Shown here in pieces: positions 2,557-54,441 of a DNA stretch of 56,171 nt (position 1 is its first letter; each line of letters starts with the position of its first letter). The DNA lies in contig CAYLSZ010000003.1 in assembly GCA_964386745.1 (NCBI GenBank), positions 1 through 56,171 of the forward strand. The letters run 5' to 3'. This DNA is from an uncultured Staphylococcaceae bacterium (lineage in GTDB: Bacteria > Bacillota_I > Bacilli_A > RFN20 > CAG-826). A program made the position numbers and the translations under genes. A model generated the notes under the pieces. The model searched no databases and had not been told where the DNA came from. It saw only the letters and a list, made by a program, of their open reading frames with translations.

Positions 2557-2604
2557 GAAAAAACCTTAGTTCTGCAGGGTTTTACTCAAGATTTAGTGTT
2601 TTTT
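2557..2604 (-). repeat. dispersed ~50-bp repeat, copy A (reverse orientation)
   Basis: GAAAAAACCTTAGTTCTGCAGGGTTTTACTCAAGATTTAGTGTTTTTT. CTGCAG at 2572-2577. Intergenic. Confidence 0.8.
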
Positions 2605-2720
2605 ACAAATAATAGCTCTCATATAATTCCAGTTATTATCTCTAACATAAATATAGTCTCTTAAAATAAAAAAGACACATCATTACGACGCGCCTTTTCA
2701 TCCTCTTAAATCGCTATTAA

Positions 2721-2945
2721 CTAATTCTTATGAACAAGGTTCATCATTGGGTCAAGATCTCTATTTTCCATGACCATTTTATTGATTATTCCTTTTATTT
2801 CATTAGGACACTTAATATTCGATAAACAATACGTATCTTCGCGTCCTAAAATCCTAACGAATACTTCGCCATAGTTAAATATTCTTCCTTTAAAAGATTG
2901 TCTAATAGTAGATCCTCGTACTGTACTGCTATCATTTTTGTACAC
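2721..2945 (-). CDS. hypothetical small ORF, possibly a gene remnant next to the IS end
   Basis: 74 codons. The only start is a GTG lying inside the IS-end-like TGTACACACCCCC sequence. No RBS and no recognisable domain. Confidence 0.2.
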   Translation of the reverse strand: MYKNDSSTVRGSTIRQSFKGRIFNYGEVFVRILGREDTYCLSNIKCPNEIKGIINKMVMENRDLDPMMNLVHKN

Positions 2946-3023
2946 ACCCCCTACTCATTTTGTTCACACATAAATTCAAATTGTTCACACCCCAAGTTTA
3001 TAATTTAGAAAAGGAGGCTAAAC

Positions 3024-3383
3024 ATGGCATACAGTAAAGAACAACGACTGCAAATTGGTAAAGAGATTTACACGCACGAGATAACGATTCGAGAAGCTGC
3101 CGAAAAATATAAAGTCAATCGGTACACGGCTCGAGATTACATGCGTGAATATCGCGATTTAAATCAACTCGAACCAATGAGCGACACCAAAGAAGAATTC
3201 AAAATTCTTAAATCAAAAAGGCGAGCAAAATATGAAGATTTACAAGAAATGTCTCGCGAACAATTAATTGATGAGGTTATTAAGGCTCGTGTGGCCGAAG
3301 AACGCGCAAAAAAAGGTTACATAGTGAAAGGAGGTGGTCAGGACAAGGAATTCATTACCTCAAAAGATGCGAATTTGAAATAG
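3024..3383 (+). CDS. IS3-family transposase OrfA (HTH)
   Basis: RBS AAGGAGG lies 7 nt upstream. ITIREAAEKYKVNRYTARDYMREY is helix-turn-helix-like, followed by a coiled C-terminus typical of IS3 OrfA. Confidence 0.85.
   Translation: MAYSKEQRLQIGKEIYTHEITIREAAEKYKVNRYTARDYMREYRDLNQLEPMSDTKEEFKILKSKRRAKYEDLQEMSREQLIDEVIKARVAEERAKKGYIVKGGGQDKEFITSKDANLK
3308..3314 (+). promoter_or_regulatory. programmed -1 ribosomal frameshift site A_AAA_AAA (then G)
   Basis: Seven A residues lie in the X_XXY_YYZ register of orfA. I translated the -1 frame by hand and it is open from 3314 to the orfB ATG at 3431 (RLHSERRWSGQG...LSAEFSVKKLCAIM), which would give an OrfAB fusion. Confidence 0.6.
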
Positions 3384-3430
3384 TTTACACGTTATCAGCT
3401 GAATTTTCTGTTAAGAAATTATGCGCGATT

Positions 3431-4240
3431 ATGGGTGTCAATCGACGTAGTTTCTACAAACGGAGAGAAAGAGTCAAAAATCCGAATGGTCATCTTGCTA
3501 AAAGAGTCGCTGACATCGAACTTTTTAAATATTATCACGACCTTTATCCAACCCACGGATATAGGTGGTTAAGAGCTAAAATTCAATTAGATTTAGGCAT
3601 TGTGTTTTCGGATAATTACGCGCATAGATGCTGTAAATATGCGGGAATTAAGAGCAAATCGCGTAAAATTGCCTCAAAAACAAGGCAAAAACGCGAATAT
3701 ACATGTCCAAATTTGCTAACTAGAGATTTAGACATTGATAGACCAATGCAAGTTGTCGTTAGCGATATGACAGCATTTTGGTGTAAAAACACATATTACG
3801 AATTAACGTTATATATGGACCTATTTAATAACGAGATTATCGCTTACGATATTTCATCAAAAAGAGGCGATCGAACCACTTACATAAATGGCTTAGAGCA
3901 ATTATTAGCAAAGAAAAAAGAATATCAGAACCTACAGTTAATACTCCATACTGACCAAGGTTCGGTATATTCCTCAAAAAGCTATAACGAGCTTTTACCT
4001 TTATATAATATCATACATTCAATGTCGCGAGCAGGAACGCCAACTGATAATGCTGCAATGGAGGCCATCAACGGTTGGATAAAAGAAGAATTGTTTATTG
4101 ATTTTAAAATTCAGGATCAGGATGATGTGATTAAAAGTGTAAACGACTACATTCATTTCTTTAATTACGAAAGACCGGCATTTGAATTGGATTATTTAAC
4201 GCCAAAGCAATACAAAGCAATATATTGGGGGTGTGAATAA
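3431..4240 (+). CDS. IS3-family transposase OrfB (DDE/rve integrase core)
   Basis: Shows VSDMT (D), HTDQGSVY (D) and PTDNAAMEAINGWIKEE (E) spacing typical of rve-domain transposases. It is in the -1 frame relative to orfA. Confidence 0.85.
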   Translation: MGVNRRSFYKRRERVKNPNGHLAKRVADIELFKYYHDLYPTHGYRWLRAKIQLDLGIVFSDNYAHRCCKYAGIKSKSRKIASKTRQKREYTCPNLLTRDLDIDRPMQVVVSDMTAFWCKNTYYELTLYMDLFNNEIIAYDISSKRGDRTTYINGLEQLLAKKKEYQNLQLILHTDQGSVYSSKSYNELLPLYNIIHSMSRAGTPTDNAAMEAINGWIKEELFIDFKIQDQDDVIKSVNDYIHFFNYERPAFELDYLTPKQYKAIYWGCE

Positions 4241-4422
4241 ATTGTTGACTAGTGCAATTGTGCAAGTGATTTTTGCGGATCTTTCAAGATTTCAAAATTT
4301 TCATTCAAATTTTCTATTTGGTATTGGATTCATTGTCGTGCTTGAAAACAGCCAAAAAAGCACATTTGATGGATTAATTTTTGCTATATTTTCCTCCATA
4401 AATAAAAACAGGCTTTCTAAAA

Positions 4423-4471
4423 GAAAACCCGTAAATTTCATCAAAAAGCCTGCAGAACTCAACTATTTTTT
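4423..4471 (+). repeat. dispersed ~50-bp repeat, copy B (forward)
   Basis: GAAAACCCGTAAATTTCATCAAAAAGCCTGCAGAACTCAACTATTTTTT. CTGCAG at 4450-4455. On the other strand it supplies the last codons and TAG stop (AAA AAA TAG) of the glycosyltransferase. Confidence 0.85.
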
Positions 4472-5485
4472 ACGATTTTCCCAGTTTTCGTATACTTCGT
4501 TATATATATCTTTTAACTTTTGACCGACGATACTAATATCCCTTTGCTTAACGACTTCGTAGCCGTTTTCAACTATTTTTGTATTGTCATGAGTAAGTAT
4601 ATATTTAAGTTTGTTTACATACTCCATAACTGAATTAGCTTTATAACAATGATAACCGTCAACTAACCAATCTTTGTATGTAGGAATATTGCCTATAAGC
4701 ATAGGAGTTTTACTAGCCAAAGCTTCTAAAACAACAATTCCTTCTGTCTCCTCTTTAGTAGGGAATAAGAAACAATTTGCGTATAATAAAGCACCTTTCA
4801 ATATATCGTTATCAATATATCCAGGCATTATTACATTTCTAGGGCGATGTTTTATAGCTTTATTTATCTTAATTGGTAAAGCGATTTTAGCCATGTCACC
4901 AAACCAAATGAACGTTACATCAGGAAATTCTTGAGCGATTCTAAAAAATTCTAAAATACCTTTTCTTTCAATAGGTAAACCAATGCCAACTACTACTTTC
5001 TGACCATCTTTAATATTAAAACAAGTCTTAAAAAGGTCGATTTTTTCTTGATCATAAGCGTAATCTTTGATTTCTATACCATTACTTACGGCATAAACGG
5101 GGCATTTTACGCATTTATATGACTCAATAACCGTTTTACTATATTGAGTTGGCGTAATAATTGCATCAGCGTATTTAAAACATTTCTTGATAGACGCTTT
5201 AGTAAATATTTGGAGAACTTTCCAAATTCTAAAGCTACCTTTCATGTCAGAAAAAATAGAATGACCATGAACAATTAGTGGCACATTCGATTTTTTAATC
5301 ATTCTTTCTATCTTGTGAGATTTAGGCCAAAGAGTGTTAACGTGGCCAATATCATAGTTATCACGAATGTCTAAAGTGATATTGACCCCGCTAGATTTTA
5401 AAGCTTTTGTTTGTAAAATTAAGGCTCGACCAATACCACTTTTTCGAATAATGCTTTGTCCTTGGAAATATAAATACACTTTCAT
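4463..5485 (-). CDS. GT4-family glycosyltransferase
   Basis: EETEGIVVLEALASKTPML is an EX7E-type motif, and the N-terminus MKVYLYFQGQSIIRKSGIGRA is typical. I start at the ATG at 5485; the track extension to 5629 runs through repeat copy C and is probably not translated. Confidence 0.8.
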   Translation of the reverse strand: MKVYLYFQGQSIIRKSGIGRALILQTKALKSSGVNITLDIRDNYDIGHVNTLWPKSHKIERMIKKSNVPLIVHGHSIFSDMKGSFRIWKVLQIFTKASIKKCFKYADAIITPTQYSKTVIESYKCVKCPVYAVSNGIEIKDYAYDQEKIDLFKTCFNIKDGQKVVVGIGLPIERKGILEFFRIAQEFPDVTFIWFGDMAKIALPIKINKAIKHRPRNVIMPGYIDNDILKGALLYANCFLFPTKEETEGIVVLEALASKTPMLIGNIPTYKDWLVDGYHCYKANSVMEYVNKLKYILTHDNTKIVENGYEVVKQRDISIVGQKLKDIYNEVYENWENRKK

Positions 5486-5537
5486 TGCTCTTTCATTATA
5501 TAAAAATCTTAGTCTTTTAAAAATAGGAAGTTTTTGC

Positions 5538-5585
5538 AAAAATAATGGAGTTCTGCAGGGTTTTTCGTAAAAATAAGCGTTTTTC
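5538..5585 (-). repeat. dispersed ~50-bp repeat, copy C (reverse)
   Basis: AAAAATAATGGAGTTCTGCAGGGTTTTTCGTAAAAATAAGCGTTTTTC. CTGCAG at 5553-5558. It lies upstream of the glycosyltransferase start, inverted relative to copy B. Confidence 0.85.
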
Positions 5586-5675
5586 TCGACATTTTCAAAG
5601 TTAAATTTAATATTCATATTAATTAACATTAATTAAAGTTAAATATATAATTATCAGTCAAAAGGAGGGTTTAAA

Positions 5676-8415: not shown

Positions 8416-8449
8416 GGGTTTATGTTTTTCACATAAACCCTTTATTTTT
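8416..8449 (+). terminator. rho-independent terminator after pmbA
   Basis: Stem GGGTTTATG / CATAAACCC with a 7-nt loop, followed by TTTATTTTT. Its 3' half doubles as the left arm of repeat copy D. Confidence 0.8.
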
Positions 8450-8482
8450 GGAAAAATCCCTGCAGATCTCAACTATTTTTTT
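8435..8482 (+). repeat. dispersed ~50-bp repeat, copy D (forward)
   Basis: AAACCCTTTATTTTTGGAAAAATCCCTGCAGATCTCAACTATTTTTTT. CTGCAG at 8460-8465. It shares a 29-bp identical core with copy E. Confidence 0.9.
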
Positions 8483-8488
8483 AAAATT

Positions 8489-9583
8489 TTAATTTTCTAT
8501 ATTGTTTGCAGATATATCAGCACGATATTTTTCTCTTATTTTATCAATCGAAATTAACGCGCCATCTCGTAAAACATAAAGGCTATCAAAAGCATTCACT
8601 CGTCTATCTTTGTTCATCATTAAACCAGCAACTTCGTGCATGGATTTAATGTCTCCTTTATATTCTAAATGGCCTTCAAGATCTTTAAGAACAGCTCTTT
8701 CTCCATTCTTATTTATAAACTCTTCACCAATCTTATAATATCCAGCCTCAATCATTTCTTTCATTGAAACTTTTAAAGGTTTAATGTCATAAACAGCTTC
8801 TTCAACAGGTCCGATATTTTCTTCGACGCTTTGGAGTCTTCTTTCGCCATAAAGACAATATTTTTTATCTAATTCGATCATTGTGTAATTTCTACCGGTT
8901 TGCTTTGCAACTGCACCAGTAGTCATCGTTCCACCAAAAGGATCTAAAACGTTATCGCCTAAAGAAGTAAATAATACTATTGCTCTATATAATAACGCTT
9001 CAGGTTTTTGCGTATTGTGAAGTTTATTATTGTCATCATCTTTTAATCTTTCATTACCACTACATACAGGAAATTCCCGAATTGAACCCATTTGCTTTCC
9101 TCCATTGAGGTATTTTCCTGTCTTGTAATTAAAAGTGAATTTGGATTTTTTGCTTTTTGCAGCCCATATGATTGTTTCGTGACTATTATTTAGTCTAGTT
9201 CCGCCAAAATTAGGTGTAGGGTTAGACTTCTTCCAAACGATATCATTAATTACCCAAAAACCTAATTCTCTAAGAATATTTCCAATTTCAAAAATTGATT
9301 GCATACCGGAAATTACACATATTGTTCCATTATCTTTTAATAATCTATGTACTTCTTTTAACCAATTTCTTGTAAATTCTTTATAAACATCTAGCGAAGG
9401 GAATTTATCCCATTCATCATCACAGCCATCAAATTCTGTGCCTTCAACTCTGTATAATTTTTTGCCTTCTTCGATTTGCATAAAATAAGGTGGATCGGCA
9501 AAACAAAAATCAAAGCTTTTATCAGGAAGGCTTTTCATTACACTTATTGTCTCACCGTTTAAAATTTTATTAATAAAATCCAT
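8489..9583 (-). CDS. beta-class N6-adenine DNA methyltransferase, CcrM / M.HinfI-like (probable GANTC specificity)
   Basis: Motif IV FADPPYF is N-terminal and motif I VLDPFGGTMTTG is C-terminal. Blocks WVINDIVWKKSNPTPNF, HETIIWA and HNTQKPEALLYR closely match CcrM as I recall it, and a CcrM-type C-terminal domain of about 90 aa is present. Confidence 0.85.
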   Translation of the reverse strand: MDFINKILNGETISVMKSLPDKSFDFCFADPPYFMQIEEGKKLYRVEGTEFDGCDDEWDKFPSLDVYKEFTRNWLKEVHRLLKDNGTICVISGMQSIFEIGNILRELGFWVINDIVWKKSNPTPNFGGTRLNNSHETIIWAAKSKKSKFTFNYKTGKYLNGGKQMGSIREFPVCSGNERLKDDDNNKLHNTQKPEALLYRAIVLFTSLGDNVLDPFGGTMTTGAVAKQTGRNYTMIELDKKYCLYGERRLQSVEENIGPVEEAVYDIKPLKVSMKEMIEAGYYKIGEEFINKNGERAVLKDLEGHLEYKGDIKSMHEVAGLMMNKDRRVNAFDSLYVLRDGALISIDKIREKYRADISANNIEN

Positions 9584-9591: not shown

Positions 9592-10419
9592 CTATATTCC
9601 ACGTATCGCTTTTACCTTAGCAAGATTATCGCCTGTGCCAAAAAGTTCTTCACGAATAATTTCGTATCTTTCGTCATTACATAACTTTTCTAAGCGTGTT
9701 CTATCTAATTCTAACAGGGCGTCAAAAATAATTTTATCATTACCAAAATCAGGTAAATTAATTATAAAGTCGTCATTGTGTTCTTCTTTATATCTTTCAA
9801 TCATACTGACCATTTCTGACCAAGCATATTCGCTTCCTTCCAAATATTTAAATAATTCATCACCATAAAAAAGCATCAACTCGACATTTGGTGAAACAAT
9901 TTTCTTCATTTCTTCGTTGTAATACTTTTTGTTTTTAATTAAATGGTCGTCAACAAACCGCATAATACCAACAATTTTATTAGAAGGATATAAATCTCTA
10001 AGCGCGTTTATCTTTTTGATAAAGTTTTCAAATTGTCCTCTTTTCTTAGTAGAATCATGGTCGTCCCTAATTTTCATTTCAACAACATAAACTGTATCGT
10101 TGTCTTTAAAAAGTTGGTCAACCATCAAATCTTTACCTAAGGAATTTAGTATGTTTTTATCGATATTTGTATAACCAATTCTTTCTATATATTTCGTGAC
10201 AAGATTTTCAACAAAATCTCCAAACTTAATTTCGCGACTTTGAGTAACATTTTGTATTATTTTGCTTTTTAATCCAGACAATCTAAATAAACCAAAATAT
10301 CGTTCAGGATAGTCGATTATTTTTTCTAAAAGTTCAACCCAAAAATCCTTTCCTACGCTTATATGGGAATCGATTAAATCGCAAAATTCTTCATATGTTA
10401 AGTAGCTCATTTTCGACAT
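9592..10419 (-). CDS. putative type II restriction endonuclease (partner of the methyltransferase)
   Basis: Lies 8 nt upstream of the MTase on the same strand. Candidate PD-(D/E)XK motif in NDTVYVVEMKI (D-x6-E-x-K). No homology is recognisable by eye; the call rests on context. Confidence 0.5.
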   Translation of the reverse strand: MSKMSYLTYEEFCDLIDSHISVGKDFWVELLEKIIDYPERYFGLFRLSGLKSKIIQNVTQSREIKFGDFVENLVTKYIERIGYTNIDKNILNSLGKDLMVDQLFKDNDTVYVVEMKIRDDHDSTKKRGQFENFIKKINALRDLYPSNKIVGIMRFVDDHLIKNKKYYNEEMKKIVSPNVELMLFYGDELFKYLEGSEYAWSEMVSMIERYKEEHNDDFIINLPDFGNDKIIFDALLELDRTRLEKLCNDERYEIIREELFGTGDNLAKVKAIRGI

Positions 10420-10494: not shown

Positions 10495-10562
10495 TCTTCG
10501 TCAATTTAATAACCTTCTTTATGTTGTTTTTTAGTTCTTTCTTTCGCTAGAATAACTTTAAT

Positions 10563-10610
10563 AAAACCCGCGTTTTTAAAGAAAATCCCTGCAGATCTCA
10601 ACTATTTTTT
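10563..10610 (+). repeat. dispersed ~50-bp repeat, copy E (forward)
   Basis: AAAACCCGCGTTTTTAAAGAAAATCCCTGCAGATCTCAACTATTTTTT. CTGCAG at 10589-10594. On the other strand it supplies the AAA AAA TAG end of degV. Confidence 0.9.
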
Positions 10611-11456
10611 CAAAATATAGAGAATTCCAAGTGTTCTAGGACCGCAGTGCGAACTGATTGTGCAACCAGCTCTTGTAACGTGTAAATGACCTTCAGGAAC
10701 GAGATCTTTTATCTCGTTATATGTCTCTTCAACAAGATCATCCATGCGACCACTATGAGTAATAAATACGTGTTCTAAATCGATGTTTAGCAAGTCGTTT
10801 TTAAACTCTTCAATTTGTAAAGCGATACCTTTTTTAAGAGTGCCTCTAGGCATCTTTGCGACTTTTAATTCGTTATTTGTAACCTTAGCAATTGGGTGAA
10901 TTTTTAATGCGTGTGCAACAAGTTTTGTTAAACCTGAACATCTTCCACCTTTATATAAATAGTCGAGTCTATCTATACAAAATTTAACGCTTAGTTGAGG
11001 TACAGTTTCATTGAGTTCATCAACGATTTCTTTTAAACTTTTGCCTTCATCTTTAAGTTTACAAGCTTTTAAAACTAATAAACCAATGCCAGTCGAAAGT
11101 GATTTGCTATCAACCGCCATTACTTTTCCTTCAGGGAATTCGTTAATAGCTAACAATGCATTTTGATAAGTCGAAGATAAACCGCTGCCTATACCGGTAT
11201 AAAAAACTTCGTTTCCTTTACCGATTTCTACCTTAAACGCTTCGATAAATTCATTAACATTAATAGCTCCGGTCTTAGGTAAATTGCCGGTTTTTTCAAC
11301 CTTATCGTATAAAAGTTCGGAATTAATATCGATTCCGTCTAGATAATCTCCTTCACTAGGAACACTTACGTGAAGAGGAATTATCTTAATATTATTTTCC
11401 TTAATTTGTTCATTAGACAAATCACATGTTGAGTCCGTAAAAATAGTTATAGCCAT
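10602..11456 (-). CDS. degV: DegV-family fatty-acid-binding protein
   Basis: MAITIFTDSTCDL N-terminus, about 284 aa, typical DegV layout. Confidence 0.85.
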   Translation of the reverse strand: MAITIFTDSTCDLSNEQIKENNIKIIPLHVSVPSEGDYLDGIDINSELLYDKVEKTGNLPKTGAINVNEFIEAFKVEIGKGNEVFYTGIGSGLSSTYQNALLAINEFPEGKVMAVDSKSLSTGIGLLVLKACKLKDEGKSLKEIVDELNETVPQLSVKFCIDRLDYLYKGGRCSGLTKLVAHALKIHPIAKVTNNELKVAKMPRGTLKKGIALQIEEFKNDLLNIDLEHVFITHSGRMDDLVEETYNEIKDLVPEGHLHVTRAGCTISSHCGPRTLGILYILKK

Positions 11457-12777: not shown

Positions 12778-13296
12778 TTATAATAGGATTGTCGGTAGAT
12801 TTTTAAATATCGTCGAGAAATCAAATTCGATTTTTTTATAGTCTTCATAATCCCCATTTACAAACCTTCGATACATGTAATAGGTAAGTCCTGAGGCCAA
12901 GAAATTGAGCGATTCATCGTTATTTAATAGATAGCTAAGTTTCTTAAATTTCAGTAACGATTTAAGGTTTTTAAATAGGTACGAAAAGATATAATTTTTC
13001 AAAATATCGTCGGCATAAGTATCGAGTATCAAACGTAAAAAATGGTCGTTTTTTTGGAAAAAACCCTGCAGATCCTGGATAATTTTTTGAAAACTGTGGT
13101 TATCAGAACACTTCAAATTGAAGTTATAAAAGATGTTTGCTATGAGGTTATAGATACTTTCAAAGTGGTAGTAAAAAGTCTGTCTTTTGACTCTTGCTCT
13201 TTCGCAAATTTTATTGACAGAGATATCTTCTAACCTCTCATTTTCAAGCATTTCTATAAATAAATCGCGAAACATCTTTTCGCTATTTTTAGCCAT
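12778..13296 (-). CDS. TetR-family regulator (DhaS-like C-terminal type)
   Basis: SVNKICERARVKRQTFYYHFESIYNL is a TetR HTH. Confidence 0.75.
   Translation of the reverse strand: MAKNSEKMFRDLFIEMLENERLEDISVNKICERARVKRQTFYYHFESIYNLIANIFYNFNLKCSDNHSFQKIIQDLQGFFQKNDHFLRLILDTYADDILKNYIFSYLFKNLKSLLKFKKLSYLLNNDESLNFLASGLTYYMYRRFVNGDYEDYKKIEFDFSTIFKNLPTILL
13037..13088 (+). repeat. dispersed ~50-bp repeat, copy F (forward), inside the TetR CDS
   Basis: AAAAAATGGTCGTTTTTTTGGAAAAAACCCTGCAGATCCTGGATAATTTTTT. CTGCAG at 13066-13071. Translated on the other strand as IIQDLQGFFQKNDHF. Confidence 0.8.
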
Positions 13297-18640: not shown

Positions 18641-18660
18641 AATTTTTGCAGGGATTTTAG
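18641..18660 (-). repeat. dispersed repeat, truncated copy G-prime
   Basis: AATTTTTGCAGGGATTTTAG retains only the TGCAGGGATTTT half. Confidence 0.45.
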
Positions 18661-18704
18661 TACTGTATAGGGCATTAATTTTAATGCTAGTTTTTTGTTT
18701 TTTT

Positions 18705-20264: not shown

Positions 20265-20271
20265 AAAAATA

Positions 20272-27707: not shown

Positions 27708-27737
27708 CGGGTTTTAAATCCTTGCAGTTTTAATTTT
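27708..27737 (+). repeat. dispersed repeat, degenerate/truncated copy I
   Basis: CGGGTTTTAAATCCTTGCAGTTTTAATTTT keeps the left arm and CCTTGCAG but lacks ATCTCAAC. Confidence 0.4.
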
Positions 27738-38550: not shown

Positions 38551-38563
38551 ATTTATGAAAAAT

Positions 38564-43181: not shown

Positions 43182-43184
43182 GAG

Positions 43185-43231
43185 GAAAATATGTCAGTTC
43201 TGCAAGGTTTTTGCTCAAAATCAGCTGTTTT
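43185..43231 (-). repeat. dispersed ~50-bp repeat, copy N (reverse, core CTGCAA)
   Basis: GAAAATATGTCAGTTCTGCAAGGTTTTTGCTCAAAATCAGCTGTTTT. Its distal arm contains the TGA stop of the ABC gene at 43221. Confidence 0.75.
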
Positions 43232-45098
43232 CTGCTTCGGTTTGAGCCATTGGATTTATGCCTGCGAATTGAGAATTATATAGTTCTGCGTAGAATCCGT
43301 TTTTCGCTAATAAATCTTTATGATTACCGATTTCAACGATGTGACCTTGTCTCATAACGATGATGAGTTTAGCGTTTTTAATCGTCGATAATCTATGAGC
43401 GATAATGAACGAAGTTCTATTTTCCATGACCCTATCTAAAGCGTCTTGAATAGCTTGTTCGGTACGAGTATCGACGCTACTTGTAGCTTCATCTAAAATC
43501 ATGATTTTTGGTTTAGAGATAATAGCTCTAGCAATCGTTAATAATTGACGTTGACCTTGAGAAATATTTGTTCCATCTTCGTTTAAGATGAAGTCATATT
43601 TGCCAGGCAAGGTTTCAATAAAGTGATCGCAATGTGCCTCTTTACAAGCTTGAACGATTTCTTCATCGGTTGCATTTTGATCACCGTAGAGCAAGTTTTC
43701 TTTAATGGTTCCTCTAAATAACCATGTATCTTGTAAAACCATACCGACGCTTCTTCTAAGGTTACCACGAGTATATTCAGTAGTTGGAATATCATCTAAT
43801 TTAATTTGACCACTATTGATTTCATAAAATCTCATAATGAGGTTAACCATAGTGGTTTTACCAGCGCCAGTAGGACCAACAATAGCGACCGTATCGCCTG
43901 CATTAATCTTTAAGTTAAAGTCTTCGATTAATGGTTTATTTGGCAAATATTGGAAATAGACGTGATCGAATTCGAATGCACCTTTGATATCGTCTTCGAC
44001 ATCGATTGCACCTTCTTTATCAGGAATAATTTCTTCTTCATCGAGAAGTTTATAAACTCTTTCGCCACTAGCGACGACAGATTGAATAATGTTAATAATT
44101 TGTCCGACTTGTTGGAATGGTCTATTGAATATATTTAAGAAGATAAAGAAGGTAATCATACTCGCTGGGTCGCGAATAATACCTCCAACGACGGCAATTC
44201 CTACGTAAGCTAAGTTATTAATAAAGTTTGTTGTTGGGAAGATAAGACCACTCAAGAATTGCGAGATTTGGTCAGCTTTAGCCATCTTTGAATTCGTTTT
44301 ATTAAATTCATCGACAGCATCTTGTTCTTTATTAAATAATTTAAGAACAACGTATCCAGCATAGTCCTCTTCAACTAAACCATCTAAGATACCAAGTTCT
44401 TTTCTATAAGCAATGAATTGCTTTTGTGAGAATTTACTTACTAAGAAGACGACAAGGATAGTAAATGGTAAGGAACAAAGTGCGACTAAAGCTAGTTGCC
44501 ACTTCGTAATAAACATCGCGACAAGCGTTCCAACAAAGAGCATGACGCCACTAGTAAGTTGAACGATGATATTTTGTAAGTTTCTAGCGATATTATCGAC
44601 ATCGTTAGTTCCTATAGATAACGTATCGCCATAAGGAACTCTATCGTAATAGGATAATGGAAGTCTATCGAGTTTATCTTTAATTTCCTTTCTCATGTTA
44701 TAGGCGTATCTATTTGATAAGCTAACGGTCATAAATTCGGCTAACCATGAGAAGAAAGCGGCTAAAACATATAAACCTAATAAGATTCCAAATCTAGAGA
44801 AGAAGAATGACCATTTAATGGATAAGGTTATAGTTCCGTCAGTTGCGATAGCAAATGATAATAATTCAGTTTCAGCGTCAGTTATATTAATAGCTGTACT
44901 TGTATCGACTGATGGAAACGCCCCATTAAGTAAGTTATTTAAAATAATAGGAGAAACTATCGTTAAGACGCTCGAAACGACAGTCATAAGCATGATGATA
45001 ATGATTAAGACGCGTTCTTTTTTAAACTCCTTAATCATTCTTTTAAATGTCGCGCCAAAGTTTTCAGGCTTTTCGACAGAACGATTCATTGGTGGCAT
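43221..45098 (-). CDS. ABC exporter, fused permease/ATPase (heterodimer partner 2)
   Basis: Six-TM type I exporter domain. GPTGAGKTT, LSQGQRQLL, ILDEATSSVD. Confidence 0.9.
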   Translation of the reverse strand: MPPMNRSVEKPENFGATFKRMIKEFKKERVLIIIIMLMTVVSSVLTIVSPIILNNLLNGAFPSVDTSTAINITDAETELLSFAIATDGTITLSIKWSFFFSRFGILLGLYVLAAFFSWLAEFMTVSLSNRYAYNMRKEIKDKLDRLPLSYYDRVPYGDTLSIGTNDVDNIARNLQNIIVQLTSGVMLFVGTLVAMFITKWQLALVALCSLPFTILVVFLVSKFSQKQFIAYRKELGILDGLVEEDYAGYVVLKLFNKEQDAVDEFNKTNSKMAKADQISQFLSGLIFPTTNFINNLAYVGIAVVGGIIRDPASMITFFIFLNIFNRPFQQVGQIINIIQSVVASGERVYKLLDEEEIIPDKEGAIDVEDDIKGAFEFDHVYFQYLPNKPLIEDFNLKINAGDTVAIVGPTGAGKTTMVNLIMRFYEINSGQIKLDDIPTTEYTRGNLRRSVGMVLQDTWLFRGTIKENLLYGDQNATDEEIVQACKEAHCDHFIETLPGKYDFILNEDGTNISQGQRQLLTIARAIISKPKIMILDEATSSVDTRTEQAIQDALDRVMENRTSFIIAHRLSTIKNAKLIIVMRQGHIVEIGNHKDLLAKNGFYAELYNSQFAGINPMAQTEAENS

Positions 45099-47233
45099 TA
45101 TAAACTACCTCCTTGTAAAGAAGTTTCACGATAAAGTTTTATCGTCTTTTCAATTTCATCAGGATCAAGTTGAGACTTAACAATATCTTGATAGACTGGG
45201 CAAGATTGAATAAGTTCGCTATGTTTTCCTTGACCAACTACCGTTCCTTGATTTAATACGATGATGTTATCAGCATCTAAAATTGAACTAACACGTTGAG
45301 CGACGACTATAACACTCGCACCAGTCGTATAGTCTTTTAAGGCTGCACGAAGTTTGGCGTCAGTTTTAAAGTCAAGAGCGCTAAAACTATCATCGAAGAT
45401 ATAGATTTCTGCATCTTTGACTAAAGCTCTAGCAATGCATAGACGTTGTTTTTGACCACCTGAGAAGTTTTTGCCGTTTTGAGAAACAAAACTATCAAGA
45501 CCTTCAGGAAGTTTTGAAACAAAGTGCGTAGCTTGAGCAACATTTAAGGCTTTATTGATTTCTTCATCAGTAGCCCCTTTTTTACCAAATTGCATATTTG
45601 ATCTAATAGTACCTTTGAAGAGTAATGCAGTTTGAGGAACGAAGCCTAAATGTTCTCTAACGACATCGCTTGGTAAGTCCTTAATATTTATACCATCGAG
45701 AAGGATTTCGCCTTCATTTGCATCATAGAATTTAGGTATTAAATTGATGATAGTAGATTTACCACTACCAGTTGAACCAATAATAGCAGTCGTAGTTCCA
45801 GGTTTGGTCTTAAAAGAGATATTTTCTAGACATGGTTTATCGCTTCCTGGATAAGTAAACGATACGTTTTTAAATTCAATTACACCTTTTTCTTTGGCTT
45901 CACTTAACTTATTTATAGCGACCTCTTTAATCGATTCGTTATTTTGTAAAGCAGTATTTTGAGCGACTAATTCTTTATATTTTAATCTAATCTTTTTGCG
46001 CTCTTGGTGATACTTTTGATGTATCTTTTCGTACTCAGAAATATAATTTTTTAGTGGAGATCTGCGGGCTTTTTCTTCAGAAAGTTGAGAAAAATTGAAT
46101 TTTATAAGCTCATAATTGAAGGCTGCTTTATACTCTTTTTCATATTTTTTATAAAGTGGTTCTAAAGCCTTTTTCTCTTTGCCGTATAAGTCATCGATGA
46201 GATTTTTATATTGCTCATAATGTTCATTGAAAGATAAACTTCCTTCCTCATCTTTATTGCTATCGATGTCTAAGACTTCATTGACACGTTTAGCACTAGC
46301 CATAGCTTGAGGCATCATAATAAAGATCATTGCAAACATGACGAATGAAGACATGATTTGCATACTATATTGAGCAACGACTGAGATATTTTCAATTTGA
46401 TTTGAAACGCTTGTAATTAAGCTAGCAAGTTCACCACTTACGCCGTTAATAATATAAAAACCTAAAGCGTAGATCGCGATAAAACAAAGGTTAAATACGA
46501 CGGTAACAAATGGGCTAGCAATAGACATATATCTATTAACTCTAATGTTGACGTCGGTTAAATCTTTATTAGCTTTAGCAAATTTCTTGGATTCGGTTTC
46601 TTCTTGATCGTATGCACGGATAACACGGATACCAGTAAGATTTTCTCTCATAACGACCGTGACGTTATCGATCTTTTCTTGAACTTTCTTAAATAGTGGC
46701 GAAGCTACATAAAGTAAGATAATCATCGCGATTAAGATAAGCGGTAAAGCGATGCACATGACGATTAATAAGTCGATTTGGACCATCGCAGTCTTAATAA
46801 TAGCGATAATCATCATGGTTGGGGACATGATTAATGTTCTAACTGCCATTAAGACAAAGTTTTTAATTTGCTCGATATCGTTAGTGGTACGAGTAATTAA
46901 AGTAGCCGTACCGAAGTTATTATATTCAGTATAGGATAAGGAATTTACCTTACTAAACATCGTTTCTCTTAGTTTTTCACCAACATAAGCTGAAATAGTA
47001 CTAGCGCTATAAAATTGAACGACGGCTAGACATATAACTCCTACGGAAATTAAGAGCATATATCCACCTTGAATCAATATTTCTTGCGTAGTTCCGTTAG
47101 TGGTAACTAAGGTTTGAATGGTGCCCATATATTCAGGCAACATGAGTTGTAAATAACATTGGCCTATAATTGCAGCGGCTGCTAAAAGCAAAAAGTACCG
47201 CTTGTGCCAAACAAATTTTAGTAATTTAAGCAT
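45098..47233 (-). CDS. ABC exporter, fused permease/ATPase (heterodimer partner 1) with ~120-aa linker insertion
   Basis: TMD, then a K/E/Y-rich insert, then an NBD (GSTGSGKST, FSGGQKQRL, IFDDSFSALD). Stop/start overlap TAATG with the downstream partner. Confidence 0.9.
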   Translation of the reverse strand: MLKLLKFVWHKRYFLLLAAAAIIGQCYLQLMLPEYMGTIQTLVTTNGTTQEILIQGGYMLLISVGVICLAVVQFYSASTISAYVGEKLRETMFSKVNSLSYTEYNNFGTATLITRTTNDIEQIKNFVLMAVRTLIMSPTMMIIAIIKTAMVQIDLLIVMCIALPLILIAMIILLYVASPLFKKVQEKIDNVTVVMRENLTGIRVIRAYDQEETESKKFAKANKDLTDVNIRVNRYMSIASPFVTVVFNLCFIAIYALGFYIINGVSGELASLITSVSNQIENISVVAQYSMQIMSSFVMFAMIFIMMPQAMASAKRVNEVLDIDSNKDEEGSLSFNEHYEQYKNLIDDLYGKEKKALEPLYKKYEKEYKAAFNYELIKFNFSQLSEEKARRSPLKNYISEYEKIHQKYHQERKKIRLKYKELVAQNTALQNNESIKEVAINKLSEAKEKGVIEFKNVSFTYPGSDKPCLENISFKTKPGTTTAIIGSTGSGKSTIINLIPKFYDANEGEILLDGINIKDLPSDVVREHLGFVPQTALLFKGTIRSNMQFGKKGATDEEINKALNVAQATHFVSKLPEGLDSFVSQNGKNFSGGQKQRLCIARALVKDAEIYIFDDSFSALDFKTDAKLRAALKDYTTGASVIVVAQRVSSILDADNIIVLNQGTVVGQGKHSELIQSCPVYQDIVKSQLDPDEIEKTIKLYRETSLQGGSL
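46045..46080 (-). repeat. dispersed repeat, copy O (reverse, core CTGCGG), inside the ABC linker insert
   Basis: AATTTTTTAGTGGAGATCTGCGGGCTTTTTCTTCAG. In gene sense it encodes EEKARRSPLKNY. Confidence 0.65.
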
Positions 47234-49476: not shown

Positions 49477-52400
49477 CGTACTAAATTACCCTTTAGATAA
49501 GATAAATCTTTCTAATAAACAAAATGTAGATTATGTTGTGGACCATTTCATTGGTTCAGTTTTTCTTTCGTATAAATTATTTAAAAATACTACTGAAAAT
49601 ATATTAATATTGACGTCAACGCAAAGTGAAACAAGTCAGATTTATAATGGCCTTTTATCAATATTAAATGAGGACGATTTGATAGTTGTTCCAACTGATG
49701 AATTAATTCGTGTTGAGTATATTTCACAGAGCAAAGAGATGCTTGCTGAGCAAATTTCTGCGATATATAAACTTACTCAAGCAAAGCATAAAATTGTTAT
49801 CGCATCAATCCAAGCGGTCTATAAATTTTACCCTTCAAAGAACCTATTTTTATCATCTGTAATTAAGCTAAAAGTAGGTGAAGAAATATCAATTCAAGAA
49901 CTTAAAACTAAACTATCAAGATTAGGTTATTTCAAGACTAATAAGGTTGATCAATCTATGTCTTTTGCCTATAGAGGCGACATTGTTGATATCTATTCTT
50001 TGAACTATCCAAAACCAATTCGAATTGAATTTTTTGGAGACGAAATTGAGTCGATTCGTGAGTTTGAAATCGAGACTCAAACATCAATCAAAAAGGATAT
50101 TAAAGAGATCGAAATCCTTCCAGCATCATTAAATCTATTAACAGATGACGAGTTAAAAAACGCTGAAGCAAAGATTTTAAATCAATATAAATTGGATGTA
50201 GAAAACGATAAAAGTGATGAGTATAAAGAAAAACTTTTTGGTAACTTAAACGACGATATTGAGCGAATTAAAGAGCATGACTTCTCTAATAAATTTTATA
50301 AATTTATGGGGTTTCTGCAGGGTTTTCATTTCAATTTAGCGGATTTTTTAGATTCTTACATTGTTATTAATATTAACGAAAAGAAGTTTAATGACATGAA
50401 AGAAGCCATCCAAAAAGAGGCCAACAATTTCTTAATGGAGCTTCATAAAAACGCTAAAACAATTTCACATTTAGAATACTTCAACATGAAATCGAGCGTG
50501 TACTCTAAAGCTAAGCAAAATTATTTTTTGAATGAAATTTATGATGATTCAAATGTTGAAGCCATTGATATTAAAACTCCAACGGTTGTTTCTACGAACC
50601 AATCTTCATCAACAAATATTTTCAGTTCTTATATAAATTTAGGATACAAAGTTGTAGCGGTTTTTCACGATCCAATTCACTACAAAAAGGCAGTCGAATT
50701 ATTAAAAGTTTTAGGATTATTTTATAAAGAAATCAGTGGTTTAGACATTGATAATTTTGAAGACGTTTATGACGTTTTTTTATTACATGAATCGTTCGAT
50801 ATTGGATACGAATTACCTTTAGAAAAAATCGTTGTTTTAACCGAAAAAGAGATCTATGGAACTCATCGACATGGCTCTACTTTTAAGAAAGTTTTTAAGG
50901 AAGGAAGAGTAATTGGAAGCTACGAAGAGCTATCGGCCGGTGACTATGTAGTTCATGAAAATTATGGCATAGGAAAGTATGTTGGAATTGTTACACTTGA
51001 CGTCAACGGAACAACTTCAGACTATATGAAAGTTGAGTATGCTGGAAGCGATACTTTATATGTTCCTCTTTATCAATTTAATCTTATTCGTAAGTATGTA
51101 AGTCGCGAAGGAAGAGTCCCTACAATCCATAAATTAAATACTAATCAATGGGAAAAAACCAAGAAACGAATTAGAGAAAGAGTTAATGAATTAGCCGACC
51201 GTTTACTTGTTCTTTATCAAGAAAGACAAAAGGTTCAAGGCATATCTTTTACAATTGAAGACGACTTACAAAAGAACTTTGAAAATGAATTTCCGTATGA
51301 ATTAACTCTTGATCAAGAAAATTCGCTTGCTGAAATTAAAAAAGATATGGAGTCAGAAACTCCTATGGACCGACTTCTTTGCGGAGATGTAGGTTTTGGC
51401 AAAACTGAAATAGCCTTTAGGGCCGCCTTTAAAGCGCTTAATAATGGTTATCAAGTGGCTTTGGTTTGCCCAACTACTTTATTAGCACGACAACATTATG
51501 ATGTGGCGACTGAAAGATTTAAAAATTATGATTTTGGGATTGGAATCTTAAGTCGATTACAAAAACAAAGCGATAACAAAATGACTAGAGAAAAGATTAA
51601 AAGTGGAGAAATTAATTTTTTAATTGGAACTCACGCCGTTTTAAGTAAATGGGTTGAGTTCAAAAATCTAGGTCTATTAATTATCGATGAGGAGCAACGT
51701 TTTGGCGTTGAACAAAAAGAACGAATTAAAGAAAAATTTACAAATATTGATGTCTTAACAATCAGCGCAACTCCAATTCCTAGAACATTACAATCTACTC
51801 TTATCGGATTAAAGACTACTTCTAATATCAATACGCCTCCTAAAGAAAGAATGCCTATACAAACATATGTAATTCCTTTTAAATTAGATGTTGTTAAGGA
51901 ACTCATAAATCGTGAAATTTCTCGATCTGGTCAGGTTTTTTATGTTTATAACAAGGTTGCTACTATATATGAAAGAGCACAATCTTTACAAGCGATGCTA
52001 CCAGGCGTTAAGTTTGCAGTAGTCCACGCAAAAATGGAAAAAGAAGAGATTGAAAACACGATGCTATCGTTCTATTTAGGTGAAATTGATGTATTAGTTA
52101 CTACTACAATCGTTGAAAATGGCATTGATGTTAGAAATGCTAATCTTTTATTAGTTGAAGATGCTGATAGATTTGGATTATCGCAACTTTATCAAATAAA
52201 AGGACGTGTTGGTCGTGGCGATAAGCTCGCTTTTGCGTATTTAATGGTGAATTACGATAAAGGAATTCGCGAAGAAGCTACTAAAAGGCTTAGAGCCATT
52301 CAAGAATTCACCGAACTTGGTAGCGGATATAAAATATCTCAACGCGATTTATTAATTAGAGGTGCTGGTGACATTTTGGGTCCTGAACAAGCTGGATTTA

Positions 52401-52966
52401 TCGATTCAATTGGTATCGATATGTATATTAAAATCCTTAATGAAGCTGTTGAGCGCAAGAAAAACCGTAGCGAAGCCATTTATAACAAAGAAAAACCATT
52501 TGAACTTACAATTGACGCTTTTATTCCTAAAGAATTTGCGACCGATGAAGATAAAATTGAGTTATATCAAAAGATTATTGGTTGTAAAACTATCGAGGAA
52601 CTAAATAATCTTGTCTTTCAAGTCGAAGACATGTTTGGAAGTTTTCCTGAAGAAGCTTGGAATATATTCACAAAGAAAGAAATTCAAATATATTTAAGTT
52701 ATGATTGCTTCGATGGTCTTAAGCAATATGAAAATAACTATCAATTATTCTTAAGCGATAAATTTTCTGAAATTGAAGGTATCGGAACTGAACTATTTAC
52801 TAGCCTTATCCCATACATCAAATATATTTCAATGAAATACGAAGATAAGAAGATTAAAATAGTTGTTAATAAGGTTGGTAAATACGTTGAAACCTTAATT
52901 GAAATTATGAAGATTGTTGTTAAATTATTTAATATAAGTATAGAAAAGCAAAATGAGACTCGATAA
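49460..52966 (+). CDS. mfd: transcription-repair coupling factor
   Basis: 1168 aa. CarD/RID domain (GDYVVHENYGIGKY), SF2 helicase motifs (GDVGFGKTE, DEEQRFG, SATPIPRT, QIKGRVGRG), TRG region. Confidence 0.96.
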   Translation: MMKLFNVLNYPLDKINLSNKQNVDYVVDHFIGSVFLSYKLFKNTTENILILTSTQSETSQIYNGLLSILNEDDLIVVPTDELIRVEYISQSKEMLAEQISAIYKLTQAKHKIVIASIQAVYKFYPSKNLFLSSVIKLKVGEEISIQELKTKLSRLGYFKTNKVDQSMSFAYRGDIVDIYSLNYPKPIRIEFFGDEIESIREFEIETQTSIKKDIKEIEILPASLNLLTDDELKNAEAKILNQYKLDVENDKSDEYKEKLFGNLNDDIERIKEHDFSNKFYKFMGFLQGFHFNLADFLDSYIVININEKKFNDMKEAIQKEANNFLMELHKNAKTISHLEYFNMKSSVYSKAKQNYFLNEIYDDSNVEAIDIKTPTVVSTNQSSSTNIFSSYINLGYKVVAVFHDPIHYKKAVELLKVLGLFYKEISGLDIDNFEDVYDVFLLHESFDIGYELPLEKIVVLTEKEIYGTHRHGSTFKKVFKEGRVIGSYEELSAGDYVVHENYGIGKYVGIVTLDVNGTTSDYMKVEYAGSDTLYVPLYQFNLIRKYVSREGRVPTIHKLNTNQWEKTKKRIRERVNELADRLLVLYQERQKVQGISFTIEDDLQKNFENEFPYELTLDQENSLAEIKKDMESETPMDRLLCGDVGFGKTEIAFRAAFKALNNGYQVALVCPTTLLARQHYDVATERFKNYDFGIGILSRLQKQSDNKMTREKIKSGEINFLIGTHAVLSKWVEFKNLGLLIIDEEQRFGVEQKERIKEKFTNIDVLTISATPIPRTLQSTLIGLKTTSNINTPPKERMPIQTYVIPFKLDVVKELINREISRSGQVFYVYNKVATIYERAQSLQAMLPGVKFAVVHAKMEKEEIENTMLSFYLGEIDVLVTTTIVENGIDVRNANLLLVEDADRFGLSQLYQIKGRVGRGDKLAFAYLMVNYDKGIREEATKRLRAIQEFTELGSGYKISQRDLLIRGAGDILGPEQAGFIDSIGIDMYIKILNEAVERKKNRSEAIYNKEKPFELTIDAFIPKEFATDEDKIELYQKIIGCKTIEELNNLVFQVEDMFGSFPEEAWNIFTKKEIQIYLSYDCFDGLKQYENNYQLFLSDKFSEIEGIGTELFTSLIPYIKYISMKYEDKKIKIVVNKVGKYVETLIEIMKIVVKLFNISIEKQNETR
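50298..50349 (-). repeat. dispersed ~50-bp repeat, copy P (reverse), inside mfd
   Basis: ATAAATTTATGGGGTTTCTGCAGGGTTTTCATTTCAATTTAGCGGATTTTTT. CTGCAG at 50315-50320. Translated as KFMGFLQGFHF, the third frame. Confidence 0.7.
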
Positions 52967-53231
52967 ATATTTAAAGTTAACTAGATTAATTAAACGTAGA
53001 AGCGTTGCAAACGAACTCTCTAGTAGAGGGGTCTTTTTAGTTAACGGAAAGGTAGCAAAACCATCCACTTCGATTAAAGTTGGGGACATAATTGATCTAA
53101 CTTTAGGTAGGCATAAATTAAAGGTTCGAGTAAAAGAAATTTTAGAATTTGTAAAGAAAGAACAAGCCAGTTCTTTATACGATATTTTAGAAGATACAAT
53201 TGTCAATGAAATTGAGTTTGGACAAGAATAA
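52953..53231 (+). CDS. rqcP: S4-domain protein RqcP/YabO (Hsp15-like)
   Basis: MRLDKYLKLTRLIKRRSVANEL...NGKVAKPSTSIKVGD closely matches B. subtilis YabO. Confidence 0.85.
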   Translation: MRLDKYLKLTRLIKRRSVANELSSRGVFLVNGKVAKPSTSIKVGDIIDLTLGRHKLKVRVKEILEFVKKEQASSLYDILEDTIVNEIEFGQE

Positions 53232-54441
53232 AAAGTATATCTTAGGGTGTAGCAGCGGGCCTGATTCGATGGCTCTTTTTCATATGCTTTACACTCAAGG
53301 ATACGATTTTGTCGTTGTAAATGTTGATTATAATTATAGAGAAAATAGCAAAGAAGAAACCGATTTAGTTGAAGCTTATTGCAAAGAAAAAAACGTCCGT
53401 TTTTACACAAAAACCGTGCAGTTCTCCACTATTTTTGGAAATTTTGAAGCTTGGGCAAGAAAAATTCGCTACGAACTTTTTATGGAAATTGGACAAAAAA
53501 ATGGTGTCTTTAATATCGTCGTTGCGCATCAACAAGACGACCTTATTGAAACGTTTTTAATGCAAAAAGAAAGGGGTGGATTGGTCTCAATTTATGGTCT
53601 TGCTCGTTCATATAAAAGAAACAACTTTTTTGTCAATCGACCTTTATTAGACTACTCTAAAAAGGACTTAATTCAATACTGTCACGATAATAAAATCCCT
53701 TTCATTATTGACCCAACAAATGCGGACACAAATTATAAAAGAAACTATTATCGAGCCAATGTTATTAGAAATTTAACGCCTGAAAAACGACAAGAAATTC
53801 TTAGCGAAATCGCTAACTATAACGAAAAATTAGAGTCTAGTGTTAATAAAGTTCATGACATGATTATGAACGATTTATTGATTTCAAAAGACGATTTTTC
53901 AAGCCTTTCACCTATGGAAGGCGAAATTGCCTTAAGCCTTATTTTAAATGAACGGAATTTATTCTTCCCAATCAGTCAAGGACTTATTAAAGACATACAA
54001 TTCGCAATCCAAAAAGGTGCAAAGACGTATAAGGCAAAGCTTACAAACGACCTCTACTTCACCTTTGATCACGAATATATCGGTTTAGTAAATAAGACTA
54101 TCAATTACGAAATTCCTATCGATGAAAACTTCAAAAATAATGAAATTTTCAAAATAAATTTAGATAGTGAAAGAGCCAAAAATCTCGTTAATCTTAAAAA
54201 TTTAGTTATTAAACCAGCAATAATTGCTACTTCATATAAAATAGGCGACGCAGCTAAAAAAATAAATCGTATATTTATCGATTTTAAGTTGCCACAAGCC
54301 TATCGACCACTTTGGCCAGGAATATTTGATGAAAATAATAATCTCTTATATATGCCTCGCTATCGAAAGGATTATTGTATCAATAAAGAAAGTGTTCTCG
54401 TTTTCGATATATTTAATTTGATTAAATATGTAGAAAAATAG
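53200..54441 (+). CDS. tilS: tRNA(Ile)-lysidine synthase
   Basis: PP-loop GCSSGPDSMAL and HQQDDLIETFLM. 413 aa. Confidence 0.9.
   Translation: MSMKLSLDKNKKYILGCSSGPDSMALFHMLYTQGYDFVVVNVDYNYRENSKEETDLVEAYCKEKNVRFYTKTVQFSTIFGNFEAWARKIRYELFMEIGQKNGVFNIVVAHQQDDLIETFLMQKERGGLVSIYGLARSYKRNNFFVNRPLLDYSKKDLIQYCHDNKIPFIIDPTNADTNYKRNYYRANVIRNLTPEKRQEILSEIANYNEKLESSVNKVHDMIMNDLLISKDDFSSLSPMEGEIALSLILNERNLFFPISQGLIKDIQFAIQKGAKTYKAKLTNDLYFTFDHEYIGLVNKTINYEIPIDENFKNNEIFKINLDSERAKNLVNLKNLVIKPAIIATSYKIGDAAKKINRIFIDFKLPQAYRPLWPGIFDENNNLLYMPRYRKDYCINKESVLVFDIFNLIKYVEK
53386..53436 (+). repeat. dispersed ~50-bp repeat, copy Q (forward, core GTGCAG), inside tilS
   Basis: GAAAAAAACGTCCGTTTTTACACAAAAACCGTGCAGTTCTCCACTATTTTT. 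Translated as KEKNVRFYTKTVQFSTIF. Confidence 0.75.

Follow-up and report, generated by a model that had tools for sequence, protein, structure and literature searches.

A short sequence that recurs every few kilobases along a bacterial chromosome, in spacers, across stop codons and within conserved genes, may be a mobile element, a site read by a protein or a tag by which cells recognise related DNA, and the stretch analysed here raises the question of which of these it is. The window, a stretch of 56,171 nucleotides (56 kb) around the replication origin of an uncultured Staphylococcaceae bacterium (GTDB lineage RFN20; CAG-826; assembly GCA_964386745.1, contig CAYLSZ010000003.1), carries 16 copies of a repeat, here termed the motif, with a conserved block of 28 bp that reaches ∼55 bp in the window and a density of about one copy per 3–3.5 kb; counts refer to the window unless stated otherwise. 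The evidence assembled below supports reading the element as a highly iterated, orientation-free DNA recognition motif, apparently made and kept in place, for which a role resembling that of an uptake signal is tentatively favoured.

A discrete repeat family

The repeat family is real and discrete. Searching the window with the core CCCTGCAGAWCTCAAC, allowing up to two mismatches, returned nine matches against 0.04 expected from dinucleotide shuffles, and an nhmmer profile made from the copies returned 16 matches with E-values from 2.5e-16 to 1.1e-8; it is the gap between these 16 matches (E ≤ 1e-8) and the next best, at E = 0.42, that sets the family apart. An earlier, sequence-only reading of the window had counted 18 copies, of which the 16 full ones were recovered in place, whereas two listed as ‘truncated’ proved not to be significant: for 18641..18662 on the minus strand the best profile match is 18645–18659 (E = 3.9), and for 27708..27730 on the plus strand, which falls in the spacer that separates dnaN from the S4-domain gene, it is 27716–27727 (E = 11).

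The core common to the family is AAAAACCCTGCAGAWCTCAACTATTTTT, to which an upstream AAAAAC-N4-GTTTT module is added in the window genome, and alignment of the copies, which gave AAAAAC-N4-G(A)TTTT-N3-AAAAA-CCCTGCAGAaCTCaAc-TAtTTTTt-N2-AAA, bore out the consensus first proposed; across lineages, the conserved core reads AAAAACC(C/T)TGCA(G/A)A(A/T)CTCAAC-TA-T5-6. Alongside the main core, both the window and the metagenome-assembled genome (MAG) SUG1359 contain a second subtype, CCCTGCA(G/A)AACCCCAA. Window copies form subgroups by linker sequence, subsets of them agree at linker and loop positions that seem free to vary, and pairs are up to 86% identical; at the motif ends conservation fades gradually, with no sharp boundary, and the A/T flanks on the two sides form a loose inverted repeat. 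The information content amounts to 50.5 bits over 58 nt (35.0 bits for the 28-mer and 23.4 bits for the 16-mer core), about fourfold above the site-frequency requirement, 12.8 bits being sufficient to specify 16 sites in 2 × 56 kb.

Two structural features stressed in the sequence-only reading fared less well than its consensus. The overlapping PstI and BglII palindromes (CTGCAGATCT) are present in the half of the copies with T at the degenerate (W) core position and are absent from the GCAAA dialect described below, and are therefore incidental, while the A/T tracts follow the helical repeat no more than approximately, their centres lying ∼10, 9, 23 and 7 bp apart. Its account of placement held: orientations are mixed on both sides of dnaA and oriC without replication polarity, and copies lie in spacers, across stop codons and inside mnmE, ksgA, tilS, mfd, an ABC transporter gene and the tail of gyrA. 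The family also remains undescribed in the sources searched: Rfam, at gathering thresholds, recognised the signal recognition particle (SRP) RNA alone in the window and no motif family; full-text search for motif strings returned no relevant paper; and phage and plasmid collections contained no match.

Placement was tallied over 85 distinct copies from the window and the motif-bearing loci of related genomes, of which 61% are intergenic, 11% lie across a gene edge and 28% are genic; with a coding share of 89% in the same DNA, the copies favour intergenic DNA. Orientation with respect to flanking genes is neutral (37:33 after 3′ ends, 27:23 before 5′ ends), antisense placement is commoner among genic copies (22 to 9), and the distance from motif to stop codon is ≤35 nt in more than half of cases. 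Separate terminator hairpins adjoin motif copies but are not part of the motif.

Copies within genes and at orthologous sites

Gene length was compared by alignment to motif-free homologues for the genic copies in mnmE, ksgA and tilS. The mnmE copy adds no residue, the alignment being gap-free through residues 172–215 even against distant homologues; the ksgA copy is length-neutral, with an alignment colinear through the motif; and the tilS copy is length-neutral against the solved TilS structures 3a2k and 1ni5. For mfd, the alignment with solved structures stopped short of the motif region. On these alignments, a mobile element that moves by cut- or copy-and-paste is rejected for each of the three copies. 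The suggestion in the sequence-only reading of a mobile element resident in frame, after the manner of Rickettsia palindromic elements (RPEs), is thus contradicted where it can be tested, and it is also opposed by orthologous copies across relatives with MnmE only ∼60–70% identical. RPEs likewise form a repeat family in frame inside conserved protein-coding genes; their insertions add 30–50 residues, whereas the copies described here replace residues one for one. Codons beneath the core fall in the lowest 0.2–4% of codon-preference windows in six of seven genes (those at the mnmE site are ATA GTT GAG ATC TGC AGG), and DNA-level constraint therefore overrides coding preference.

Beyond the window, the 22-mer CCCTGCAGAWCTCAACTATTTT has 45 exact matches in 44 loci of six species-representative MAGs, namely SUG1359, where it occurs on 27 separate loci, RGIG4904 from roe-deer rumen, BRZ_QT bin77, ‘Mollicutes’ SUG431, Candidatus Onthovivens SUG2468 and MAG154. 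The window genome is not among them, and its sole match to those loci is PPDK, at 76% DNA identity; the MnmE of the window is ∼61% identical to that of these relatives, and the 28-bp consensus is nonetheless common to them, with flank preferences that differ per genome around the same 28-bp block. The motif is assigned to uncultured gut Bacilli of Mollicutes-like character, a clade at family level that is akin to Candidatus Onthovivens. Some full copies in RGIG4904 and SUG1359 have a partial left half-motif ∼20–34 bp upstream (L034 at 984 and 4515, AAAAACCCTGCAG/AAAAACCCTGCAA; more divergent in L044 at 454 and L015 at 294), and because of these partial left halves the upstream AAAAAC-N4-GTTTT module of the window may be a degenerate half-copy.

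Site-by-site comparison was made with 15 syntenic origin-region loci from relatives (L026, from SUG1359, L045–L054 and L108–L111), the MnmE of which is 59–71% identical to that of the window, 71% marking the nearest found. At the mnmE site the motif is present in the window, L026, L047, L049 and L108–L111, degenerate in L050, and absent from the L045, L046, L048 and L052 lineages; the variants read CCCTGCAGATCTCAAC in the window, CCCTGCAGAACTCAAC in SUG1359, CCTTGCAAATCTCAAC in L047, L049 and L108, and CCCTGCAGTTCTCAAT in L109, with GCAAA forms also in L110 and L111. These variants belong to lineage dialects, in a comparison that rests on few loci per lineage: GCAGA is found in 16 of 16 window copies and at the SUG1359 mnmE site, GCAAA in every copy found in L047 and L049 and in most of L108–L111, and both forms in RGIG4904.

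The remaining sites follow suit in various subsets of lineages. A partly degenerate motif occupies the ksgA site in L026, L047, L049, L109 and L111, and L109 has an orthologous copy at the mfd site (21261–21323), of the CCCCA subtype as in the window. Among spacers, the motif is found between the ispE-like kinase gene and PPDK in L047, L049, L050 and L108; in the PPDK 5′ spacer of L047 and L049, in the orientation opposite to that of the window; and between the FGGY kinase and ABC transporter genes in L047, L109, L110 and L111 and, in degenerate form, in L108. In these orthologous spacers the motif is the sole conserved island, surrounded by unalignable DNA, and its best-kept part is a stretch of ∼14 bp, AAAAACCYTGCARA, together with the T tract. 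In the FGGY/ABC spacer, the motif sits on different sides of a terminator hairpin according to lineage, and the stop codon in L109 and L111 is part of the motif; this pattern implies that the motif has been repeatedly re-created within the same tolerated stretch of DNA. A putative genic copy in the ABC transporter gene of L049 was discarded as a chance partial match.

Two further observations concern these loci. In L047 (8301–8697), L049 (14354–14700), L050 (14331–14714) and L026 (2290–2545), a conserved open reading frame (ORF) of ∼80 residues (...YIGDELVGY...NNDLYF...) separates the ispE-like kinase gene from PPDK, whereas the window and L045 are without it; in L047, L049 and L050 a motif copy directly follows its stop codon. 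In the pair L008 (2150–2400) and L029 (180–430), the homology of SUG1359 and MAG154 begins at a motif copy, with 93% identity on its downstream side and no relationship on its upstream side, and the core reads CCCCAA in one and CTCAAC in the other; either the motif was the site of a rearrangement or, as a contig end is ∼300 bp away, the assembly is at fault.

Candidate roles of the motif

Under the favoured reading, a conserved protein would read the motif as double-stranded DNA, and biased fixation, not descent from a mobile master copy, would keep it near its consensus. In the form of an uptake-signal-like sequence, given a probability of roughly 0.4, a competence-associated receptor would preferentially bind fragments carrying the motif, homologous recombination of the imported DNA would spread motif-improving alleles (‘molecular drive’), and the motif would become enriched wherever it is tolerated, both in spacers by terminators or stop codons and where proteins are under weak constraint. 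This role is ranked first because in-place origin, dialects combined with family-level conservation, orientation neutrality and excess information would all arise from biased uptake and recombination, to our knowledge the one process established to give all four properties. The same process underlies the uptake signal sequence (USS) and the DNA uptake sequence (DUS) (PMC2817400, PMC3630211, 10.1101/2025.10.24.684340). Like DUS and USS, the motif is over-represented, occurs in both orientations without replication polarity, is enriched near gene ends and terminators, has genic copies without indels at weakly conserved residues, combines family-level conservation with lineage dialects, and carries information about twofold or more above the site-frequency need (the excess for DUS and USS being computed from published copy numbers); like the Haemophilus USS (Hin-USS), it has a core set between A/T tracts. 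Its genic share of 28% is close to that of N. meningitidis, where 34.5% of uptake sequences lie in ORFs (PMC2817400). The other two proposals of the sequence-only reading, an uptake signal and a protein binding or recombination site, are both compatible with the data, the four properties given above being those in which the motif parallels USS and DUS. The bolder claim, that this could be the first DNA uptake signal outside the Proteobacteria, a ∼28-bp word by which genome-reduced, Onthovivens-like gut Bacilli would mark their own DNA and which natural transformation with a sequence bias would drive into spacers and genes, is rather unlikely. Well-known genome-wide motifs that are made in place and kept across a family comprise uptake sequences, HIP1, Chi and KOPS, a rare class, and as far as is known the motif differs from every member in length, asymmetry and host lineage.

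Several observations weigh against an uptake signal. Sequence-specific uptake is known only in the Neisseriaceae and Pasteurellaceae (10.1101/2025.10.24.684340), and the prior for such a signal in a lineage of Bacilli is low for that reason. The conserved stretch spans 28–55 bp against 9–12 bp for DUS and USS cores, at a density of ∼1 per 3.5 kb against ∼1 per 1.2 kb. The CTCAAC and CCCCAA subtypes coexist within genomes and free linker and loop states are shared among window copies, which hints at copying or gene conversion among copies in place of independent point mutation; the L008/L029 pair, with its change of subtype where homology starts, near a contig end, points the same way. Inverted pairs that would form terminators, as many DUS and USS do, are lacking among the copies, and the codons beneath the motif are non-preferred, unlike those in USS reading frames, where a correlation with preferred codons is seen (PMC2817400). 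Screens of ∼0.6 Mb of loci for signatures of prepilin, DprA, ComF and ComEA were empty, at a coverage of the genomes too partial to weigh on the question, and none of comEA, comEC, comF, comG and dprA is among the 40 genes of the window.

Recognition by a protein without any uptake is the alternative that comes nearest, a distinct though minority possibility: the copies would constitute a binding-site array for an abundant chromosomal protein (nucleoid-organising, condensin-loading or occlusion-type) that co-evolves with its site, purifying selection keeping each site since the cell needs one every few kilobases, and sites being built inside genes where operons have no spacer. It accords with the retention of orthologous sites even in the tightly packed rnpA–yidC–jag–mnmE–tatD–rnmV–ksgA–ispE operon, with neutral orientation and a spacing never below 1.1 kb (the closest two window copies are 1,097 bp apart; minimum-distance test P = 0.004), with dialects as expected of protein–site co-evolution, and with A/T tracts around a GC core and a partly dyad-symmetric upstream module, typical of protein-bent DNA. 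Selected binding sites normally carry about the required information, however, and 50 bits is ∼4 times the need at the given density; intervals vary much as random ones do (coefficient of variation over the whole window 0.83 against 0.91, a difference that is not significant), motif density is apparently several-fold lower in SUG1359 than in the window, and no candidate binding protein was found. A weak lead on the kind of DNA-binding domain that may read the motif is offered by the sites of Din-family invertases (hix, gix and cix; 26-bp dyad with dix consensus TTC-N4-AAAC-N-NN-N-GTTT-N4-GAA; hix and gix with AAAC-N4-GTTT geometry; PMC3241671 Table 3), which are resembled by some upstream modules with AAAC-N4-GTTT and outer TTC/GAA, for example TTCTTATAAAACCTGCGTTTTTAAAGAA at 38494–38521, and, as a half-site, by the left flank and core start in SUG1359 (TTCTCAAAAACC) and RGIG4904 (TTATCAAAAACC). 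The match is weak, since of the 16 upstream modules only 5 have the strict inner geometry and only 2 the full pattern, and unlike Din sites the motif has a variable central dinucleotide and a main core that is not dyad-symmetric; no serine-recombinase or invertase signature was found in the window or the motif-bearing loci, and copies inside essential genes argue against active recombination. Drive within the cell, by short-patch gene conversion or motif-specific nick-and-repair, would require neither uptake nor a function at each site and is considered improbable. A nick-and-repair system would be comparable with proposals made for HIP1 in cyanobacteria and with very-short-patch repair; HIP1 (GCGATCGC) is over-represented, arises by substitution in genes and spacers and is kept at orthologous positions, as is the motif, but it is a perfect palindrome of 8 bp associated with a methyltransferase site, whereas the motif is long and asymmetric, with internal palindromes that are dispensable, the GCAAA dialect being without them. 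Genic copies are the length-neutral patches that such drive would leave; the mnmE copy includes the window-specific upstream module, matches the intergenic copies at 8435 and 10563 at 85% of positions over 53 nt, and has a ‘free’ GAG linker and a similar loop in common with the intergenic copy at 18714; and the linker subgroups, together with the L008/L029 site, where the CTCAAC and CCCCAA subtypes, three linked differences apart, part company between sequences 93% identical, tend in the same direction. The proximity of that site to a contig end leaves room for an assembly artefact, shared linker states could be weak motif preferences, and we know of no bacterial system that converts ectopic patches of 30–50 bp at such scale.

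Two further explanations find less room. A miniature non-autonomous mobile element (a miniature inverted-repeat transposable element, MITE, or one of repetitive extragenic palindromic (REP) or RPE type), its transposase encoded elsewhere in the genome, would account for a discrete family with copy pairs up to 86% identical, a strong intergenic preference, loosely inverted A/T flanks, the partial half-copies beside full copies in RGIG4904, and the bracketing by copies of both an IS3-like element and a restriction-modification cassette, yet is quite improbable given that three of three genic copies tested add no length and that copies are recognisable at orthologous sites at an MnmE identity of ∼60–70%, where neutral DNA should be unalignable. 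REP elements and bacterial interspersed mosaic elements (BIMEs) with their RAYT transposases, Correia, RUP and BOX are likewise short, mostly intergenic, near gene 3′ ends and of species-specific consensus, but they are inserted DNA with hairpins or terminal inverted repeats; the motif has neither a conserved hairpin (consensus fold energy 0) nor added length, and its consensus is kept far beyond genus level. The sole transposase source in the window, an IS3-family element at 2981–4241 (orfA 3024–3383; rve integrase 3431–4240; terminal inverted repeats TTCACACCCC.../...GGGGGTGTGAA), has motif copies on either side (2544–2615 and 4414–4483), and the motif was rejected as an end of this element, the terminal repeats of which are unrelated to it; a phage or plasmid origin was rejected on finding 0 motif matches in viral contigs, phage records and plasmids. 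Least probable of all, and very much so, is a role at the RNA level, as a small RNA, terminator, processing or stability element, or promoter, although many copies lie 0–35 nt from stop codons beside terminator hairpins and a weak UP-element and −10 resemblance can be read in the consensus flanks. An RNA element was rejected for want of an Rfam family or a consensus fold (RNAalifold on 13 copies gave no pairs), and a promoter or terminator on account of the random orientation to flanking genes and of real hairpins that stand beside the motif and not inside it; copies are also found within genes as well as at either end of them (5′ or 3′), and the orientation of the motif in one and the same spacer can be reversed from one lineage to another.

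The window and its surroundings

The coordinates of the 16 copies are collected in Table 1. The motif TAG (the CTA of CAACTA on the opposite strand) terminates the genes at 4463 and 10602. Two inverted pairs of copies each bracket a whole gene: 4414–4483 with 5526–5595, 1.07 kb apart, around the glycosyltransferase gene, and 41451–41522 with 43178–43236 around the FGGY kinase gene. Outside the window, a contig bounded by inverted copies (L021) was considered as a mobile cassette and rejected, its translations being those of ordinary genes.

Table 1. Motif copies in the 56-kb window, with profile E-values, core features and gene context
Position	Strand	nhmmer E	Core	Context
2544–2615	−	2.9e-10	3 mismatches	Divergent spacer between DUF4143 ATPase gene and IS3-like element
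4414–4483	+	1.1e-13		Overlaps stop of glycosyltransferase gene 4463–5629 (−); motif CTA is the TAG stop of that gene on the other strand
5526–5595	−	7.2e-15		At 5′ end of, or just upstream of, glycosyltransferase gene
8429–8492	+	1.3e-13	Perfect	Convergent spacer between TldD/PmbA gene and DNA methylase gene
10550–10623	+	2.5e-16	Perfect	Overlaps stop of DegV gene 10602–11456 (−)
13029–13099	+	2.6e-12		In ORF 12778–13296 (−), antisense to gene; codon-preference quantile beneath core 1.2%
18700–18760	−	5.9e-16	Perfect	Spacer between CorA gene and MacB-like ABC transporter gene
21646–21710	−	7.1e-13		Codes last 14 residues of GyrA (...EKPEISEENPADLD, then stop); directly upstream of serS
34749–34816	−	1.3e-14	Perfect	mnmE, residues 188–204; codon-preference quantile 0.7%
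37402–37472	−	3e-13	Perfect	ksgA/RsmA, residues 197–213
38499–38560	+	8e-13		Begins at stop codon of ispE-like kinase gene, then terminator hairpin shared with PPDK
41451–41522	+	1e-15	CCCCAA subtype	Divergent spacer between PPDK and FGGY kinase gene
43178–43236	−	2e-12		Convergent spacer between FGGY kinase gene and ABC transporter gene
46033–46106	−	1.1e-8	Degenerate	In ABC transporter gene 45098–47233 (−), sense strand
50289–50359	−	5.2e-10	CCCCA subtype	mfd, residues 280–296; codon-preference quantile 0.2%
53376–53450	+	6.8e-15		tilS, PP-loop domain, residues 64–80

The window is an origin region of low GC (∼33%) and standard code, with a GC-skew minimum near 28 kb, in which dnaA, dnaN, the S4-domain gene, recF, gyrB and gyrA lie on the minus strand and rnpA, yidC, jag, mnmE, tatD, rnmV, ksgA and the ispE-like kinase gene, then PPDK, mfd and tilS, on the plus strand. 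Unlike typical Firmicutes origin regions, it has no parA, parB, noc, mnmG or rsmG after mnmE. An exact-match query with its DnaA protein returned no record. YidC (31237–33483) is unusually long, at 748 residues, and best matches Mycoplasma-type YidC models, and a small-type bacterial SRP RNA at 20265–20361 lies between a gene with a cytidine/deoxycytidylate-type deaminase domain (19788–20291) and serS. Just left of the first motif copy, five tandem 23-bp units (ATTTTCAGTGATTTGAAAGATTT alternating with TGTTTCAGTTGTTTGAAAGATTT) occupy 2416–2530, upstream of the DUF4143/AAA_14 ATPase gene (1085–2377) and within the divergent spacer.

Between two perfect-core copies in direct orientation lie an N6/N4 DNA methylase gene (8489–9583) and an ORF without Pfam match (9592–10419), probably a restriction-modification pair, and both genes hold the otherwise rare CGG codon, which suggests recent acquisition. 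CGG is nearly unused over the 40 genes of the window, with 8 codons against 350 AGA, and 4 of the 8 are in the insertion-sequence and restriction-modification genes; a 2026 paper names Onthovivens as one of the lineages with predicted CGG reassignment from Arg to Trp (PMC13092985).

Under either of the two leading readings, the motif reshapes protein sequence and codon choice in MnmE, KsgA and TilS, and it provides a ready marker for the binning and classification of motif-bearing MAGs. If a binding-site array were correct, the motif would point to a chromosome-organising protein in genome-reduced Bacilli. If the uptake reading were true, the GCAGA and GCAAA dialects would represent barriers between lineages from the guts of pigs, chickens and ruminants, gut bacteria of Gram-positive type would join those known to recognise their own DNA in transformation, and the motif would serve as a tag by which recombination and the barriers between species could be followed in uncultured lineages of the microbiome.

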